Source: an uncultured Gammaproteobacteria bacterium (GTDB lineage: Bacteria > Patescibacteriota > Patescibacteriia > UBA2591 > UBA6264). Taken from it: a stretch of DNA of 32,068 nt. The notes under the pieces are model-generated. The model was not told the DNA's origin. It did no database searches and saw nothing but the letters and a program-made list of their open reading frames with translations. Below are positions 4,390 to 31,826 of the stretch, piece by piece; position 1 is the first letter of the stretch, and the number at the start of each line of letters is the position of its first letter. The position numbers and the translations under genes are program-made. The stretch lies in the NCBI GenBank assembly GCA_964485025.1, contig CAZAGY010000001.1:1-32068 (forward strand), read 5' to 3'.

Positions 4390-5409
4390 ATGGTTAAACA
4401 ACAAGAAGAAACTCCCCGTCAAAAAGCGGCCGAAATGGCGGTGGAGCAGTTAAAAGCCCGCTTTGGAGATGGAGCGATTATGAAAATGGGAGAAGCTAAA
4501 AGGATGGAAGTGGAAGTTATTCCCACCGGCTGTCTTTCTTTGGACTTGGCCTTGGGTGTCGGCGGTATTCCCCGCGGCCGGATAATTGAAATTTTCGGTA
4601 TGGAGATGAGCGGTAAAAGCACTTTAACCCTGCATATGATTGCTGAGGCCCAAAAAAGAGGCGGTACTGCGGCTTTTATTGACGCCGAGCACGCCTTAGA
4701 CCCGGAATACGCCAAAAAGATAGGGGTGAACATTGATGAACTTTTGATTTCTCAGCCGGATACCGGTGAACAAGCCTTGGAAATTGTGGAAACTTTGGTG
4801 CGGTCAAACGGTGTTGATATCATTGTCATTGATTCCGTTGCCGCTTTAACGCCCAGAAAGGAAATAGAAGGCGAGATGGGGGACCAGCAAATGGGTTTAC
4901 AGGCCCGTTTAATGAGTCAGGCTTTAAGAAAATTAACTAGCATTGTCAGTAAGACCAAGACGGCAGTCATTTTTATTAATCAGATAAGAATGAAAATAGG
5001 AATTATGTTCGGCAATCCGGAGACAACCACCGGAGGTTTGGCCTTGAAGTTTTATTCTTCCGTCAGAATTGAGGTCAGGCGGTTGGCCCAGATTAAAAGA
5101 GGAGAAGATGTCATCGGCAATAAAGTAAAGGCCAAGATTGTCAAGAACAAAGTGGCGCCGCCGTTTAAGGTCTGTGAATTTGAGATTATGTATGACGAAG
5201 GCATTTCCTGGACTGGAGATTTGTTGAATATAGGGGCTAAACACAATTTGGTCAAGAAATCGGGCAATACTTTGAGTTATGGCGAAAACAAGCTGGGCGT
5301 CGGTTGGGAAAATGCCAAAAAATTTCTGAAGGACAACAAAAAGGTGGCGCAGGAGTTAAAAAAAGATATTTTAAAAGCCATTAAAGAAGAAGAAAAGCAA
5401 GCCAAGTAA
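4390..5409 (+). CDS. recA: Recombinase RecA
   Basis: The protein is RecA-like along its full length: [30 protein letters not shown]-loop [39 protein letters not shown] and [17 protein letters not shown]. Confidence 0.97.
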
Positions 5410-5441
5410 AAGGAATAAAAAAAGAAAATCCGTAATATATC

Positions 5442-5475
5442 AAAAATCGCCGTTAAAGGCGATTTTTGTTTTTTG
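5442..5475 (+). terminator. Rho-independent terminator after recA
   Basis: A 10-bp stem, aaaaatcgcc (5442-5451) paired with ggcgattttt (5458-5467), has loop gttaaa and is followed by a T-run (gtttttt). Confidence 0.75.
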
Positions 5476-5627
5476 GTTTTTCTAATGAGGTCGGACCTCT
5501 TTAAATCTAAAATTCCGTCCTCACCCCAACCATCCACACCCCCTTACCTGTAATTATTTATCAACAACGTTATTATACTGTTATATGTTAAAAAACACAT
5601 ATTTCGGAAACAAAACAAGACTAAATT

Positions 5628-6239
5628 ATGCAATTTATAGAATTTAAAAGAAAATTAAAAGATTTTGTTATTTTTAGCTTGAATGATATTCGTAAAATTG
5701 AGGCCGATTTTGATTTGCGTCGTCTTAACGAGTGGGCTGGCAAAAATTATATAAGAAAGATAAAGAGGGGATATTATATTTTTTCCGACCTGCTGATAAA
5801 CGAACAAATTTTATTTTTAATTGCTAATACCATTTATCAACCATCGTATATTTCCCTGGAAATGGCTTTTTCTCTATATAATCTTATTCCCGAGGGGGTT
5901 TATAAAATAACCGCGATAACTTCAAAAAAGACAAATAATATTAAAACTGACATTGGCAATTTTACATATAAACACATTAAGCCTGAATTAATGTTTGGTT
6001 ATGAGCTTAGAGAATATGACAATCATCGCTATTCAGTGGCCGAAATAGAAAAAGCCGCGCTTGATTATCTTTATCTTAATTCTCATATAAATAGCAAAAA
6101 AGATTTTGACGGCTTAAGGTTTAATTTTTCCGAATTTAAGATTAAGGCCGATATGAATAAGTTTAAAAAATATTCTAACGCTTTTCATAATAAGGCGTTA
6201 TCTGTTAGAGTTAATAAATTTATATCTTATCTTAAATAA
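5628..6239 (+). CDS. abiEi: AbiEi-family antitoxin/transcriptional regulator (type IV TA / abortive infection AbiE)
   Basis: The N-terminal pattern FSLNDIRKIEADFDLRRLNEWAGKNYIRKIKRGYYIF matches the AbiEi N-terminal winged-helix (...G.l.ri.rG.Y). It sits 2 nt upstream of an AbiEii gene, which is the typical operon arrangement and size. Confidence 0.75.
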   Translation: MQFIEFKRKLKDFVIFSLNDIRKIEADFDLRRLNEWAGKNYIRKIKRGYYIFSDLLINEQILFLIANTIYQPSYISLEMAFSLYNLIPEGVYKITAITSKKTNNIKTDIGNFTYKHIKPELMFGYELREYDNHRYSVAEIEKAALDYLYLNSHINSKKDFDGLRFNFSEFKIKADMNKFKKYSNAFHNKALSVRVNKFISYLK

Positions 6240-6241
6240 AT

Positions 6242-7018
6242 ATGCTCAATCTTTCAAATATAGAAAAATATTATCCGGAAAACGAGCGACTGTTCAAGAA
6301 AAGCATTTTGCGGGAGTATTTGCAGTATAAGATTTTAGAAATTATTTTTAATTCAAAAATTGGACAAAAATTGTCATTTCTGGGCGGGACAACCCTTCGC
6401 ATTATTTACAACAACAGTCGATTTTCCGAGGATCTTGATTTTGATAACTTCGGTCTGAGTAAAAAGCAGTTTGTTTCCCTTACTGATGAAGTTAAAAACG
6501 GATTAGAGTCTCAGGGATATAAAGTTGAAATAAAAAACGTATTTAAGGGCGCGTGTCGTTTCTATATCAAAATACCCGGTCTTTTGTTTGACAATAAAAT
6601 GTCTAATATGCAAGATGAAAAGATTTTAATCCAAATTGATACGGCTCCGCATTTTTTTAATTATACGAGAGAATTAAAAATCATCAACAAATTTGATGTT
6701 TTTACCCAGGTTTATACGACGCCTCTTGATATACTTTTGTCGCAAAAAATTTACGCCGCATTAAATCGACCTCGAGCCAAAGGCAGGGATTTTTTTGACA
6801 TTGTTTTTCTTTTCCCCCAAACCGAACCTAACTACGAATATCTAAAAGAGAAGATCGGCATTAAGGATGGGTCGGGATTAAAACAAACGTTAATATCCAA
6901 AACTGCCAATTTTGATTTTGATAAATTAGCTAAGGACATTGAGCCGTTTCTTATCAACGCTGATGATGTTAAAAAAGTAAAAATGTTTATTCCCTATATT
7001 AAGTCTTTAAAGTTTTAA
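6242..7018 (+). CDS. abiEii: AbiEii/AbiGii-family nucleotidyltransferase toxin (DUF1814)
   Basis: It has the hallmark N-terminal motif LREYLQYKILEIIF...LSFLGGTTLRIIYNNSRFSEDLDFDN (GGTaL...RfSEDlDF) and the C-terminal RAKGRDFFDIVFL (RxRDxxD) motif. Confidence 0.85.
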   Translation: MLNLSNIEKYYPENERLFKKSILREYLQYKILEIIFNSKIGQKLSFLGGTTLRIIYNNSRFSEDLDFDNFGLSKKQFVSLTDEVKNGLESQGYKVEIKNVFKGACRFYIKIPGLLFDNKMSNMQDEKILIQIDTAPHFFNYTRELKIINKFDVFTQVYTTPLDILLSQKIYAALNRPRAKGRDFFDIVFLFPQTEPNYEYLKEKIGIKDGSGLKQTLISKTANFDFDKLAKDIEPFLINADDVKKVKMFIPYIKSLKF

Positions 7019-7021
7019 GAT

Positions 7022-7070
7022 TACGCGGAACAATAAATTGGGCGTTGGTTGGGAAAACGCTAAAAAGTTA
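7022..7070 (+). pseudogene. Diverged remnant of a recA 3' segment (codons equivalent to Y297-K311 of the intact gene)
   Basis: tacgcggaa-c-aataaattgggcgttggttgggaaaacgctaaaaag aligns with recA 5278-5322 (tatggcgaaaacaagctgggcgtcggttgggaaaatgccaaaaaa). After a 1-nt indel it translates as [12 protein letters not shown], identical to RecA, and nearly all differences fall at third codon positions. It starts 3 nt after the abiEii stop. Confidence 0.7.
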
Positions 7071-7100
7071 AGGAGCCTCGTTCCTCAAATTCAGCTAATA

Positions 7101-7133
7101 ATACAAAACCCTCTTTTGAAGAGGGTTTTGTAT
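7101..7133. terminator. Bidirectional intrinsic terminator (perfect 15-bp stem)
   Basis: atacaaaaccctctt-ttg-aagagggttttgtat lies between convergent genes, with abiEii and the recA remnant on + and the 7152..7547 ORF on -. A- and T-rich flanks occur on both sides. Confidence 0.75.
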
Positions 7134-7151
7134 TGTATTGAAAAATAAGTT

Positions 7152-7547
7152 TTAATTCCGGTTGGGAAAAATTTGAAATTCCTTCAGCATTTTGATTTCT
7201 TCTTTTTTAAGAATATTCTTATTTTTAAGAAATTCAATTAAGAGTTCAACTTTTTTATCTTGTTTTCTCTGCCGGACGATTACAGAACCCTCTAAATCTG
7301 ACAATTTATCATCAAGATAGGATTTGGTAACCATATTGTTTTCTACTCCATCTAATCGGTTTTCTACTCCATCTAATCGGTTTTCTACTCCATCTAATCG
7401 GTTTTCTACTCCATCTAATCGGTTTTCTACTTTGATAAAATGTTTATCTATTTTATCAAAAGAGGGCTTGATAATTTTTATCGCCAAATCGTCAATTTCA
7501 TCATTCATTATTCTTTTTATTTTTTTCAAATCTTTTTCTTCAAGCAT
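7152..7547 (-). CDS. Small coiled-coil protein with perfect VENRLDG heptad repeats (function unknown)
   Basis: The 131-aa ORF contains VENRLDG x4 plus VENNMVT, encoded by identical 21-nt units. A consensus sigma70-type promoter lies 27 nt upstream of the ATG. No family was recognised. Confidence 0.6.
   Translation of the reverse strand: MLEEKDLKKIKRIMNDEIDDLAIKIIKPSFDKIDKHFIKVENRLDGVENRLDGVENRLDGVENRLDGVENNMVTKSYLDDKLSDLEGSVIVRQRKQDKKVELLIEFLKNKNILKKEEIKMLKEFQIFPNRN
7338..7431 (-). repeat. Tandem 21-nt repeat, 4 perfect copies plus a 10-nt partial copy
   Basis: The unit gttttctactccatctaatcg occurs at 7338-7358, 7359-7379, 7380-7400 and 7401-7421, with a partial copy at 7422-7431. The copies run head to tail with no spacers and are in frame with the minus-strand ORF. 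Confidence 0.95.
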
Positions 7548-7659: not shown

Positions 7660-7725
7660 CCAATTACCCGACTCTCTTTTATATAATCCCAATTACCCAA
7701 TTACCCAATTACCCGACTCTCTTTT
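7660..7725 (-). repeat. 21-nt direct duplication of the wzz 3' end plus an 8-nt tandem repeat (CCCAATTA)
   Basis: ccaattacccgactctctttt occurs identically at 7660-7680 and 7705-7725. Between and overlapping these copies are four C3 runs (7688-90, 7696-98, 7704-06, 7712-14) separated by aatta. Confidence 0.85.
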
Positions 7726-10764: not shown

Positions 10765-11367
10765 TCATATTTTACTTAAAACGGCTTTTTTTAGTTTGGA
10801 AAATTGATGTTGATTTAGATTTAATTCAGAAACCTCAGTTGTTGTTTTTAATAATTTTTTTAAATCGTCAACAAAATTTTGTTTTTTTTGTGTTTTCAAA
10901 ATTTTTAAATAGAAGTTAAAGTCAAAATTTTGCCGGAGCATGCTAATAATGTCAATTTTATCTTTTTCCCCTTTAGTAGACCCAACGCGGTCTTGGAAAG
11001 CATGTTGTTTTAAAACCATTAAAATTTCCATTTTAGGGACTGTGAAACCGGAATGTTTAACAGTATTTTTTTGTATTTCGTCATAAGGGATTCCTAAATC
11101 GGAAAAAAACGGCAGATAAATATCAATATCGGTATTATCTTGTTTAATTTCATATTTCTTTAATCTTTGGTTTTTGATCAAATCGTAATTTTTCCGTAAT
11201 TTCTCTAATTCTTGATAATCGCAGATAAAATCAATATCTTTTGATTTTAACCCATTTGTGTAAATAAAAACAGCCCATCCGCCAATTAAAATGAATTTAT
11301 ATTTATTCTTTAAGTCTTGAAGGGTTTTCCAGCTTTTTCCGGTTATTAAGTTATGGTAAAAAGACAT
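10765..11367 (-). CDS. Minimal Pol-beta-superfamily nucleotidyltransferase (putative toxin/effector of a two-gene module)
   Basis: It has the NTase signature ILIGGWAVFIYTNGLKSKDIDFI (GG...x...DxD), a second acidic cluster NTDIDIY, and a C-terminal KGEKDKIDIISML (KD..D) motif as in AbiEii/DUF-type NTases. It starts 3 nt after the upstream wHTH gene. Confidence 0.65.
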   Translation of the reverse strand: MSFYHNLITGKSWKTLQDLKNKYKFILIGGWAVFIYTNGLKSKDIDFICDYQELEKLRKNYDLIKNQRLKKYEIKQDNTDIDIYLPFFSDLGIPYDEIQKNTVKHSGFTVPKMEILMVLKQHAFQDRVGSTKGEKDKIDIISMLRQNFDFNFYLKILKTQKKQNFVDDLKKLLKTTTEVSELNLNQHQFSKLKKAVLSKI

Positions 11368-11369
11368 AA

Positions 11370-11957
11370 TTAGATATTAATTTTGTTTTTTAAGGCATTT
11401 AGAAAATCCTGCGCATACCATTCCCCGACATTCCATAAATCAACAAAGGTTTGGCACAAAGGAGTGGTTTCTCCGTAATTACGCAAGAATTTATCTTGTT
11501 TTATAACAATTAAGTTTGGATAGCCCTTTTTTGAGGGAAATCTTTTTTTTATTTCCTCCAATTCTTTTTCCTTTGAATAGATGTAAATTTTATCATAATC
11601 GGCGGGTTGATCGTCAAAGCGCTGATTATAAGCAGTGTAAAGGCCGTAAATTATTTTAGGAGGCATTAAGGCTTCAATTTTTTTAGGAGGTAAATCAACT
11701 TTCGTTTGATAAATTATATCTTTTTTTAAATTTCTATAAGTGGCCCAGAGATATAAGAATTTTTCCCTATTTATTATTCGGAAATTTCGACTATTAACTT
11801 CAATAATTTTTAATTGGCGGGGGACTTTCAGCGCATTAAAAACAGTGCTTAAAGAAATAGAAAATTTTTGGGCTAATTCTTTTTGGGTAAATTGCTCAAT
11901 ATTTTTTTCAATAGTTTGATAAAGGATTTCTCTCCAGATTATTTCTTTTTTATTCAT
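11370..11957 (-). CDS. Winged-HTH regulator, AbiEi-like putative antitoxin
   Basis: The N-terminal HTH is FTQKELAQKFSISLSTVFNALKVPRQLKIIEV. The C-terminal domain ends ...PLCQTFVDLWNVGEWYAQDFLNAL, resembling the AbiEi/COG5340 C-terminal pattern (...e.tl.Dl...). It is tightly coupled to the NTase gene. This assignment comes from pattern memory, not a search. Confidence 0.55.
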   Translation of the reverse strand: MNKKEIIWREILYQTIEKNIEQFTQKELAQKFSISLSTVFNALKVPRQLKIIEVNSRNFRIINREKFLYLWATYRNLKKDIIYQTKVDLPPKKIEALMPPKIIYGLYTAYNQRFDDQPADYDKIYIYSKEKELEEIKKRFPSKKGYPNLIVIKQDKFLRNYGETTPLCQTFVDLWNVGEWYAQDFLNALKNKINI

Positions 11958-29970: not shown

Positions 29971-30813
29971 ATGATAAAATTTAATATAGGAATAGGAAAA
30001 TTGAGCCGGCGCGACATAAGAGATTTGATTTTGGGCGGGATTATTATCGTTGCCGGAATACTTGGTGTGGTTACTTTATTTAACGGGACTGAAGGATTAA
30101 GAAAGTTTTTAAGCGGAATACTTGTTATTTTAATGACCATATTAATAGCTAGTGGGATAATTTCTTCGGAAATGAATTCCAATGCGATTTCTGAATCAGA
30201 AGCTAATTTAGTATCAGTTGTCAGAGTAATTGACGGCGACACAATAGTTGTAGATGGAGACGTTCATGTTCGTCTCTTAGGGATTGATGCTCCTGAAGCA
30301 GGGGATTGTTTCTATGAAGAATCTAAAGACGCTCTTGTAAATCTTGTTGACGGAGAAGAGGTTCGCTTGGAGAAAGATATTTCCGATAAGGACAATTTCG
30401 GGCGTTTGCTCAGATACGTGTTTTTGGAAAATAATTTATTTGTTAACGATTCTCTTTTAGAAGAAGGGTATGCGGATGTTTTGCCTTCTGGTCAAGATTT
30501 ACTATATAGGAGACTTTTAACCTCCAGTCGCAATCAGGCGATTACACAACGCCAAGGCATGTGGGGGGCCTGTGAAAATCAGGAAGAAGAGGCGGAAACC
30601 ATTTTTCCTTTGGAAAAAAATGATGTTCCAACCGATTCGGAATGTCTTATTAAGGGTAATATCTCAGAACACGGATACGGCCGAACTTATTTTTCTCCCG
30701 GCGACCCCAATTATGACACGGTAAAAGTGTCTTTTGACAAAGGGGAACAGTTTTTTTGCACAGAGCAGGAAGCCGAAGCGGCAGGCTACAAAAAGGCGGC
30801 AACTTCTTATTAG
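29971..30813 (+). CDS. Membrane-anchored thermonuclease (SNase-fold) with a Cys-containing C-terminal module
   Basis: Two N-terminal TM segments precede the SNase core VVRVIDGDTIVVDGDVHVRLLGIDAPEAGDCFYEESKDAL...GRLLRYVF...EGYA. The C-terminal motif is CLIKGNISEHGYGRTYFSPGDPNYDTVKVSFDKGEQFFCTEQEAEAAGYKKA. Confidence 0.85.
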   Translation: MIKFNIGIGKLSRRDIRDLILGGIIIVAGILGVVTLFNGTEGLRKFLSGILVILMTILIASGIISSEMNSNAISESEANLVSVVRVIDGDTIVVDGDVHVRLLGIDAPEAGDCFYEESKDALVNLVDGEEVRLEKDISDKDNFGRLLRYVFLENNLFVNDSLLEEGYADVLPSGQDLLYRRLLTSSRNQAITQRQGMWGACENQEEEAETIFPLEKNDVPTDSECLIKGNISEHGYGRTYFSPGDPNYDTVKVSFDKGEQFFCTEQEAEAAGYKKAATSY

Positions 30814-30884: not shown

Positions 30885-31826
30885 TTACCTCTTTCGTTTT
30901 CTGTCGCGAATATATCTTTCAATCGCTTCTTTAGTGGTTAACCAGTTTCTTTTTTCTTTATGCGCTTCCAATTTCCCTTGCCGAACCAAAAGATTAAGAT
31001 ATTTCGCCGAATAAGGACAAAAATTGCTTGCTTCTTTTAAGGTAAGAATTTTTTCTCTTTTTTTGGAAATAGGAGTAAGGGTTTTTAAATAAATATCCAA
31101 AGAACGTTCTATTGCTTGCGCGATAAATCGGATAAAGGGGATTAAATTATTTTTATCAGCTTCGGCCAATACTCGGTAATATTTTTTTCTATCATTTTTT
31201 AATACAATAACCAATGGATACCCCGTTCGCATTAAAATTAAATTCATTATTAATCTTGCCGTTCTGCCGTTTCCATCAAAGAAGGGATGGATATAAGTTA
31301 ATTTATGATGAATTATAACGGCTAATTCGATTAGGTGCGATTTCTTTTGATTTTGCCTCCACCATTTTATTAGTTTTCCCATTTCGTATGGAACATCAAT
31401 GGCCTCCGGCGGTTTATGCTCCGCGCCGCCAATAATCACGCCACTGTTTCTATATCTTCCCGCCCATTCTTTGTCAGTCTCCTGAATGATTAATTGATGT
31501 AAACCGCGAATCAGCTGTTCGGAAATGGTCTGTTTTTTGTCTTTTTCTATTAAGTCAGATAAGTATTCCAATGCTTCATAATGATTTTTCGCTTCAAGGT
31601 GGTCTTTAAGAGGTTTTCCTTTTATGGTGATTCCTTCGTTAATTACCAAAAATGTTTCTTTTAAAGTTAGGCTATTCCCTTCAATCCCATTTGAGTTGTA
31701 AGTCATTTCTATCCTAAATTGTTCCCTAAGTTTTTTAACGGCCGAAGGTGGTAAGGGCCTAAGTTTATTCAGGGCTTTTAATTTATTTTCAATTCTGTCT
31801 TTTATTTTTTTTTCCAAATATTGCAT
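30885..31826 (-). CDS. Fic-family protein (class II, self-inhibited AMPylase type) with C-terminal excisionase/MerR-like HTH
   Basis: The Fic motif HPFFDGNGRTARL (HxFx[DE]GNGRxxR) is present. The N-terminal inhibitory motif SNGIEG fits [ST]xxxE[GN]. The C-terminus is LTLKEASNFCPYSAKYLNLLVRQGKLEAHKEKRNWLTTKEAIERYI (HTH_17-like). Confidence 0.9.
   Translation of the reverse strand: MQYLEKKIKDRIENKLKALNKLRPLPPSAVKKLREQFRIEMTYNSNGIEGNSLTLKETFLVINEGITIKGKPLKDHLEAKNHYEALEYLSDLIEKDKKQTISEQLIRGLHQLIIQETDKEWAGRYRNSGVIIGGAEHKPPEAIDVPYEMGKLIKWWRQNQKKSHLIELAVIIHHKLTYIHPFFDGNGRTARLIMNLILMRTGYPLVIVLKNDRKKYYRVLAEADKNNLIPFIRFIAQAIERSLDIYLKTLTPISKKREKILTLKEASNFCPYSAKYLNLLVRQGKLEAHKEKRNWLTTKEAIERYIRDRKRKR

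Follow-up and report, generated by a model that had tools for sequence, protein, structure and literature searches.

AbiE is a type IV toxin-antitoxin and abortive infection system that is found for example on pNP40 of Lactococcus and in Streptococcus agalactiae, and that combines AbiEi with AbiEii, a DUF1814 protein. Genomic islands residing in the 3' ends of tRNA, tmRNA and protein genes carry a replacement 3' end, have identical attachment (att) cores, and encode their own integrase. Here we describe an AbiE cassette behind recA of an uncultured Patescibacteria bacterium (assembly GCA_964485025.1, contig CAZAGY010000001.1, of which the analyzed stretch of 32,068 nucleotides (nt) is termed the window), and we consider it probable that this cassette displaced the recA 3' end through a combination of homologous and illegitimate recombination and thereafter spread horizontally.

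A displacement of C-termini has been described for rhs, contact-dependent inhibition (CDI) and type VI secretion system (T6SS) effector-immunity loci, for which homology-facilitated illegitimate recombination was proposed (PMC5361080). As in those loci, the module in the window brings a new 3' end together with downstream genes, would recombine via the conserved 5' part of the resident gene, and leaves the old 3' end orphaned downstream. The resident gene, however, is the housekeeping gene recA where those loci have a polymorphic toxin, it is a toxin-antitoxin pair for defence that travels as passenger, and the displaced piece is a short non-coding relic in a single displacement layer, whereas rhs, CDI and T6SS loci retain orphan toxin tips with immunity genes. 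In Vibrio cholerae, the 32.8 kb element RME, which has a phage integrase, 9-bp inverted repeats, a complete second recA and precise excision, also resides in recA (PMC4405046), and in both cases the damage caused by a mobile element is compensated by recA sequence of foreign ancestry. In contrast to RME, the element in the window is about 1.65 kb long, lacks an integrase, and exchanges no more than a few codons at the recA end; there is one recA plus a relic of 53 nt. With the islands in gene 3' ends, the locus shares the intact target and the direct repeat of the target 3' end at both borders, but the two copies in the window are alleles with 82% identity, and no integrase was found.

A second recA allele behind the AbiE cassette

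Two independent assemblies from other samples (L001 and L002; L numbers denote the compared loci) are base-identical to the window across all junctions, and the structure is therefore real and not an assembly artefact. At the end of the cassette, the sequence reads TAA-GAT-TACGCGGA, abiEii ends at 7018, and three bases past its stop, at 7022, recA sequence begins for a second time. The core of this repeat is an ungapped match of 38 nt between 5287-5324 and 7032-7069 with 82% identity (31/38), which is extended back to 5278/7022 by a 1-nt insertion (an extra A at 7029/7030) and forward to AAGGA at 7074 by a 4-nt deletion. An earlier note, made from the sequence alone, had described recA 5278-5322 as repeated at 7022-7067, and this repeat is indeed present. 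The local alignment of recA with 7019-7140 scores 21, as compared to a mean of 9.6 and a maximum of 15.5 in 496 other 122-nt windows of the contig and a maximum of 12.5 in 500 shuffles, so that the possibility of a chance match, which the note had considered, was checked against two null distributions and the score lies outside both. In a six-frame translation of the contig, one 12-residue RecA peptide is the only RecA peptide of at least nine residues that recurs outside recA.

When the extra A is removed, the relic can be read as 15 codons, of which 5 are identical to those of recA, 8 are synonymous and 2 are non-synonymous (G to A, E to D), the E to D change being the natural state in a sister allele. 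Within the 12 codons N300-K311, 7 differ between the copies, all of them synonymously. Because the divergence is mostly synonymous, the relic is to be regarded as a different allele, and its substitution pattern marks it as a piece of another recA that diverged under selection rather than as a decaying fresh duplicate. With five of the 15 codons being identical, it was overstated that the copies differ at almost every third codon position, but the allele-type pattern holds, and the attribution to a different recA allele has gained a candidate: the relic matches the L006-type allele at 37/39 positions, including an exact run of 31 nt, versus 31/38 for the recA of the window, and the respective alignment scores are 80 and 57.

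It is hardly credible that the repeat reflects a local tandem duplication of the recA tail with later insertion of AbiE, a chance match of AT-rich DNA, or an assembly chimera. Direct repeats around an insert can certainly arise by duplication, and a 21-nt tail duplication exists at the neighbouring wzz gene, but seven synonymous differences out of seven would not be expected from the decay of an unselected duplicate, and the relic is nearer to the allele of another species than to the adjacent gene. As to the other two possibilities, the alignment score is far outside the null distribution, and three independent assemblies agree.

The relatives with empty sites (L003-L008 and L018), which have no AbiE after recA, permit a polarization of the event. 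Sister contigs show the gene order FtsK, HTH_25 protein, recA, convergent small gene, DUF5674, Wzz and CapD-like gene, and behind the recA genes of L003, L006 and L018 there is a hairpin, AAAAYCCTCTT..AAGAGGRTTTT, that is homologous to terminator T2 of the window, which there faces the convergent open reading frame (ORF) 7152-7547. As this T2-like hairpin directly follows recA in the sisters, T2 is the ancestral terminator and the cassette has been inserted before it; by synteny, this can be regarded as shown for the clade. The hairpin at 7101-7133 had been suspected to be the original recA terminator, and genomes in which recA leads straight into its homologue bear this out. That the fragment would run straight into a perfect 15-bp hairpin is true for the perfection of the hairpin, which has 16 bp (7100-7134), but the sequence is no longer recA-like from about 7074 onward, and before T2 the old tail and stop region have lost about 100 nt. 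The damage to the relic (+1 nt, -4 nt, about -100 nt) is beyond what a single event explains. Within this clade, the interval between recA and wzz is variable, as the genes that it contains differ among L003, L006, L098, L099 and the window.

The AbiE cassette

AbiEi and AbiEii are encoded on the same strand in a bicistronic arrangement, with abiEi ending at 6239 and abiEii starting at 6242. AbiEii matches the PADLOC AbiEii profile (E 3e-92) over residues 1-255 of its 258 residues, and the pol-beta nucleotidyltransferase motif GG-x12-DLDFD is readable in its translation (LGGTTLRIIYNNSRFSEDLDFD). The abiEi product, which matches its PADLOC profile over the full length, had no Pfam match in the profile search, and its NCBIfam TAA_AbiEi match of 28 bits is below the 150-bit cut-off. 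As in known AbiE systems, the operon consists of two genes, the antitoxin and regulator coming first and the PF08843 nucleotidyltransferase with a pol-beta-type GG...DxD motif coming second, and the pair can on these grounds be assigned as a genuine AbiE system, as the earlier note had recognized for the genes between recA and the relic. It differs from the known systems by being joined to recA tail sequence at both ends, and by its affiliation to a Patescibacteria-wide, very widespread subfamily (proteins of 258 residues and 203-205 residues). AbiEii proteins of this family share 65-81% identity over the full 258 residues across many candidate phyla. By analogy to other AbiE systems, AbiEi presumably represses the operon and neutralizes AbiEii, and freed AbiEii would halt growth upon phage infection.

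The recA gene has its own terminator T1 in front of the cassette, and from its position T1 presumably separates the cassette from recA transcription. A terminator at 5442-5475 and a spacer of about 150 nt had been noted before, and both were found, T1 being a hairpin at 5441-5468 plus a T run, followed by about 150 nt up to abiEi; T1 and the spacer start read ATCAAAAATCGCCGTTAAAGGCGATTTTTG. It had also been argued that the segment between recA and the relic is more AT-rich than recA, which is true but uninformative: the cassette has a G+C content of 28-33%, the contig mean is 33.5%, and it is recA with 44% that is the outlier. As the cassette thus has the average composition of the contig, base composition was rejected as a sign of foreign origin. 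The coordinates of all features are compiled in Table 1.

Table 1. Features of the recA-AbiE locus, with coordinates given as positions in the window.
Feature	Position	Strand	Basis
Intact recA, 339 aa, ends on QAK-stop	4390..5409	+	Pfam RecA E 1e-134 and RecA_C
Left copy of the repeat, codons Y297-F312 of the functional recA	5278..5324	+	L003/L015-type codon usage
Recombination breakpoint block AAAGAAGAAGAAAA, common to all alleles	5383..5396	+	Identity jump versus L013 tail
Imported recA end (QAK-stop) and terminator T1 (hairpin 5441-5468)	5397..5470	+	93% to L013
Spacer and presumed abiE promoter/operator	5471..5627	+	5513-5627 92% identical to L095
Palindrome GAGGTCGGACCTC in cassette spacer	5487-5499	.	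Single occurrence in window
abiEi, antitoxin and transcriptional regulator, 203 aa	5628..6239	+	PADLOC AbiEi E 6e-59, full length
abiEii, nucleotidyltransferase toxin, 258 aa	6242..7018	+	PF08843 E 7e-18, above gathering score
Conserved right junction GAT-TACGCGGA	7019..7029	+	11/11 identical in L013
Displaced recA 3'-end relic, Y297 to ~D315	7022..7074	+	1-nt insertion, 4-nt deletion
Degenerate remainder of old recA downstream region	7075..7099	+	Alignment to L006 and L003 downstream sequence
Ancestral bidirectional terminator T2	7100..7134	.	Perfect 16-bp hairpin, arms 7100-7115/7119-7134

The palindrome in the spacer has the form GAGGTCG(G/A)ACCTC; the window has a single copy of it, and L013 has two, both downstream (1366-1378 and 1399-1411).

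A second carrier lineage with the same junction

The best AbiEii homologue is encoded on L013 (95% amino-acid identity) and the best AbiEi homologue on L095 (97%). Both contigs come from sample 3300037067, the same metagenome that contains the empty-site relative L006. With its end, L095 overlaps the beginning of L013, and we treat them as one second carrier lineage. At the nucleotide level, this lineage and the window are 92% identical in the spacer, 97% in abiEi (L095), 94-98% in abiEii (L095/L013), and at 11/11 positions of the junction GATTACGCGGA, and the high identity of the cassettes ends there, at 7019-7029. After the junction, L013 continues with the recA tail of a third allele, which is full-length and unbroken (46 residues and stop) and has its natural counterpart in the RecA P0010 encoded on L097, the recA of which is 76% identical to that of the window at the nucleotide level. 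The L013 tail is followed by a T1-type terminator and a syntenic gene for a 115-aa protein with 81-83% amino-acid identity to its L003 and L006 homologues.

The join at Y297 had been interpreted as one illegitimate join, and this part of the earlier interpretation needs to be changed in that the join is not private to this genome, as the same TAA GAT TACGCGGA junction is present in L013 after an abiEii that is 94-98% identical and before a different, complete tail. Both carriers moreover have the unusual codons TAC-GCG (Tyr-Ala instead of Tyr-Gly) at this place, which points to a single origin of the junction. An identity of 92-98% in the cassette versus 69-76% in the recA-type sequences indicates a recent horizontal movement in which the junction was carried along, and by these identities the movement of the cassette, junction included, can be taken as shown.

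In L095, a hairpin-rich insertion of 113 nt (732-844), which is absent from the window, separates the abiEi stop from the abiEii start, and it may be a miniature repeat element. L095 and L096, which are both second-carrier assemblies, break just right of the palindrome position.

Three ancestries within 1.8 kb

The recA of the window shares about 81% nucleotide identity with the recA genes of four sister lineages, to which it is roughly equidistant, and no closer allele was found among those compared; the closest RecA proteins, 89-92% identical, are from Patescibacteria. A crossover in the recA body, as had been assumed in the earlier note, was examined by sliding-window identity against nine alleles, of which none came closer than about 82% and none gave a switch point. 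Since there is neither a close allele nor a switch point, such a crossover is not locatable, and the one breakpoint that can be mapped lies in the tail. Across 5278-5380, the identity is 83% to L015, 81% to L003, and only 69% to the L013 tail, and the identity to the latter then jumps from 69% to 93% across 5381-5470, which places a recombination breakpoint at 5383-5396. From there on, the stretch of about 5397-5470, with the last four recA codons and T1, shares 93% identity with L013, where it corresponds to the end of the tail and the terminator. A block of this type is native after recA in L097 (RecA P0010) and absent from the sister alleles L003, L006, L015, L098 and L018.

On this distribution, it can be considered shown that the last four recA codons and T1 have a foreign origin and move together with the cassette, and by the same alignments they are all that is demonstrably foreign, with 5383-5396 as the sole mappable crossover. 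The proposal that a segment carrying a recA 3' end plus AbiE replaced the native recA end is thereby retained for these four codons and T1, but not for any larger part of recA. The resident recA is intact and has a 3' end of different ancestry (L013/P0010 type), the target gene has thus been restored by an element-borne 3' end, and the orphaned old 3' end is found directly past the incoming module, as the relic at 7022-7074 in the window and as a complete orphan tail in L013.

Three ancestries hence meet within 1.8 kb of the window, namely recA up to about 5382, then the stretch 5397-7029 with the four codons, T1, spacer, abiEi, abiEii and junction, which is 92-98% identical to the L013/L095 lineage, and finally the L006-type relic, followed by the clade's own T2. 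At least three juxtaposed ancestries require more than one recombination event, and together with the damage of the relic this speaks against the one-event history that had been suggested at first. A single private event, comprising a crossover in the recA body and a random illegitimate join at Y297 with vertical inheritance only, would produce an arrangement as predicted by homology-facilitated illegitimate recombination. It is nevertheless very unlikely. A lineage whose recA-type sequences share only 69-76% identity with those of the window has this junction too, together with a cassette that is 92-98% identical, and in L013 both the tail allele and the set of downstream genes are different. 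Moreover, the mappable breakpoint is in the tail and not in the body.

Several other contigs end in or shortly after the recA tail. The contigs L009 (6017; from the metagenome-assembled genome GCA_028713575.1) and L010 (1802), both with an L006-type recA, end exactly at the equivalent of the 5383-5396 block, and L015 (4483) ends 43 nt past its recA stop, which hints that strains of other populations vary at this site. In L097 (1040-1086), at the native P0010-type recA locus, the loop of the T1 hairpin is interrupted near the contig end (ATCAAAAATCGCC/CTTATGATCTG...), and after T1 this genome has something different.

A possible route of formation and spread

How could such a mosaic have formed? 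The mobile block would comprise about 5397-7029, that is the recA stop region, T1, the promoter spacer, abiEi, abiEii and the fixed junction GAT-TACGCGGA. The junction itself would be the start of an old recA tail, and the displaced tail of the host would remain as an untranslated relic before T2. The variable region between recA and the convergent downstream genes probably served as entry point. In the founding event, the end of abiEii would have been joined to recA codon 297, most likely by homology-facilitated illegitimate recombination, with a homologous crossover in recA on the left side and an illegitimate join on the right side that was possibly guided by microhomology (TTTAAG). Once flanked by recA sequence on both sides, the cassette could spread among related Patescibacteria species by RecA-dependent homologous recombination, with recA as the left-hand homology and either the relic or DNA downstream of it as the right-hand one, either by a double crossover of imported linear DNA or by integration of an excised circle. 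Crossovers at differing points of the tail would then generate a mosaic of three alleles, and in this genome the left crossover would have been at 5383-5396, with the relic having decayed since.

A single-crossover (Campbell) transfer straight from an L013-like donor was considered and rejected, because a crossover at 5383-5396 predicts a P0010-type relic and a crossover just past the junction should give a left tail of P0010 type, none of which was observed. The simplest history for the window would be a double crossover with a donor that already possessed the full structure and an L006-type relic, in which 5383-5396 was the place of the left exchange, while the right exchange occurred in the relic or farther on. 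Such a donor was not observed; the donor is predicted to be a carrier of L006 type, contigs of which would start with CAAGCCAAG...T1, and TTTTAAGATTACGCGGA could serve to recognize further carriers.

Several points weigh against this displacement and its horizontal spread. The arrangement is known from two lineages only and its spread is thus narrow: when the tails of 80 species and relatives were searched against their own locus, no tail relic was found at any of the 80 other recA loci. Four other AbiE cassettes of the same family (L011, L012, L014, L029) have no flanking repeat of their upstream gene, other members of this AbiE subfamily being located in unrelated contexts without flanking repeats. 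The assignment of the relic as L006-like is based on only 39 nt, which lie in a conserved region. Microhomology at this junction, where the abiEii end ...GTTTTAAG-A-TTAC can be compared to ...CTTT(G/A)AG-TTAT of recA, could be a coincidence, as six bases with one extra base may match by chance. The data contain no close allele of the window recA, which leaves donor and recipient indistinguishable for 4390-5382, and the left flank of the cassette was not seen in the L013 strain, as L095 and L096, the contigs with the best AbiEi, break in the spacer.

What alternatives exist for a spread by homologous recombination? The cassette could in principle be a non-autonomous integrative element whose recombinase is encoded elsewhere, with an att core in recA codons 294-300 and the recA-like ends representing attL and attR. 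The identical junction nucleotide in two lineages with different tails thereafter would agree with such a site-specific reaction, as would the target that is kept intact by an element-borne end like in islands at gene 3' ends, and a recA-targeting island with integrase is known from Vibrio (PMC4405046). Nevertheless, no integrase, recombinase or transposase domain was detected in the 28 ORFs of at least 110 aa in the 32-kb window, the cassette included. The two repeat copies are 82% identical with differences spread throughout and share no exact core of more than 11 nt within the window, which does not resemble an identical att core, and the left breakpoint at 5383-5396 is about 100 nt away, in recA coordinates, from where the right junction lies, unlike in a simple reciprocal exchange. 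Nothing supports a trans-acting site-specific recombinase, and we regard its involvement as unlikely. Searches for other hallmarks of mobile elements revealed no tRNA genes in the window, only sub-threshold matches on hairpins to known RNA families (Rfam), and no terminal inverted repeats among the repeat pairs detected in the window. A search with the 17-mer of the junction in viral contigs gave three matches, all of them unrelated chance matches.

A more far-reaching possibility, which we consider doubtful, is that the cassette is a self-propagating, integrase-free element that homes to recA and is always flanked by recA-tail sequence. Host RecA would loop out a circle of tail, T1, spacer, abiEi and abiEii and, once it has been taken up, insert it into sufficiently similar tails of naive recA genes, thereby regenerating an intact recA. 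Each passage would swap pieces of the tail and thus lead to a three-way mosaic, and the assembly breaks in the tails of L009, L010 and L015 would fit. If true, a defence module would parasitize a universal recombination gene as landing pad and as engine.

The displacement of the recA 3' end followed by horizontal spread, which we favour, involves a known kind of defence system and a known kind of recombination, and it changes nothing in what is known about the function of AbiE or RecA. What is noteworthy is a cassette without mobility genes that keeps a fixed recA-tail junction across species. It provides a nucleotide-resolved example of a defence toxin-antitoxin cassette crossing species of ultra-small Patescibacteria without a dedicated mobility gene, with a conserved housekeeping gene serving as homology arm and a datable scar being left behind. 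The presence of filled and empty sites in one metagenome points to an ongoing turnover, and if more carriers are found, the recA tail could mark recombination-driven defence exchange in uncultured lineages.

Neighbouring genes and other AbiE pairs

More distant AbiE pairs are found on two other contigs. In L003 (5763-7000), a pair with 52% AbiEii identity lies just past the CapD-like gene, and in L029 (3857-5240), an AbiE system (49%) is encoded about 900 nt downstream of recA, after an ORF of 200 aa and without a recA relic.

In the window, the ORF at 7152-7547 on the minus strand stands in place of the genes for the 115-aa protein and DUF5674 that follow recA in the relatives, where it has no homologue. 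It encodes a coiled-coil-like protein of 131 aa with VENRLDG repeats that result from a perfect 21-nt tandem repeat of 4.5 copies (7338-7431), and in the otherwise identical strain L001 two copies fewer give a product of 117 aa. A consensus sigma-70 promoter (TTGACA-16-TATAAT with TG) is located at 7601-7574 on the minus strand. Beyond it, the convergent wzz gene has its final seven codons (KESRVIG) duplicated in an exact 21-nt direct repeat (7660-7680 and 7705-7725), with 3.4 copies of the 8-nt tandem repeat CCCAATTA between the two copies. The Wzz C-terminus is GKESRVIG in the window versus SKEK[VMA] in the relatives, and the repeat may represent another scar of a 3' end, here at the opposite border of the variable region.

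The remainder of the window is a surface-polysaccharide gene cluster. Beyond the CapD-like gene, at 10765-11957 on the minus strand, there is a pair of ORFs of 200 and 195 aa without Pfam or PADLOC match, the homologues of which (70% and 81% identity) directly follow recA in L098 (5076-6267); gene order in the region downstream of recA is fluid. Near the end of the window, a Fic/DOC and HTH_17 protein is encoded at 30885-31826 on the minus strand (PADLOC SoFic, E 1e-40), which is a candidate defence gene, and an ORF for a secreted-nuclease-like (SNase) protein adjoins it at 29971-30813.

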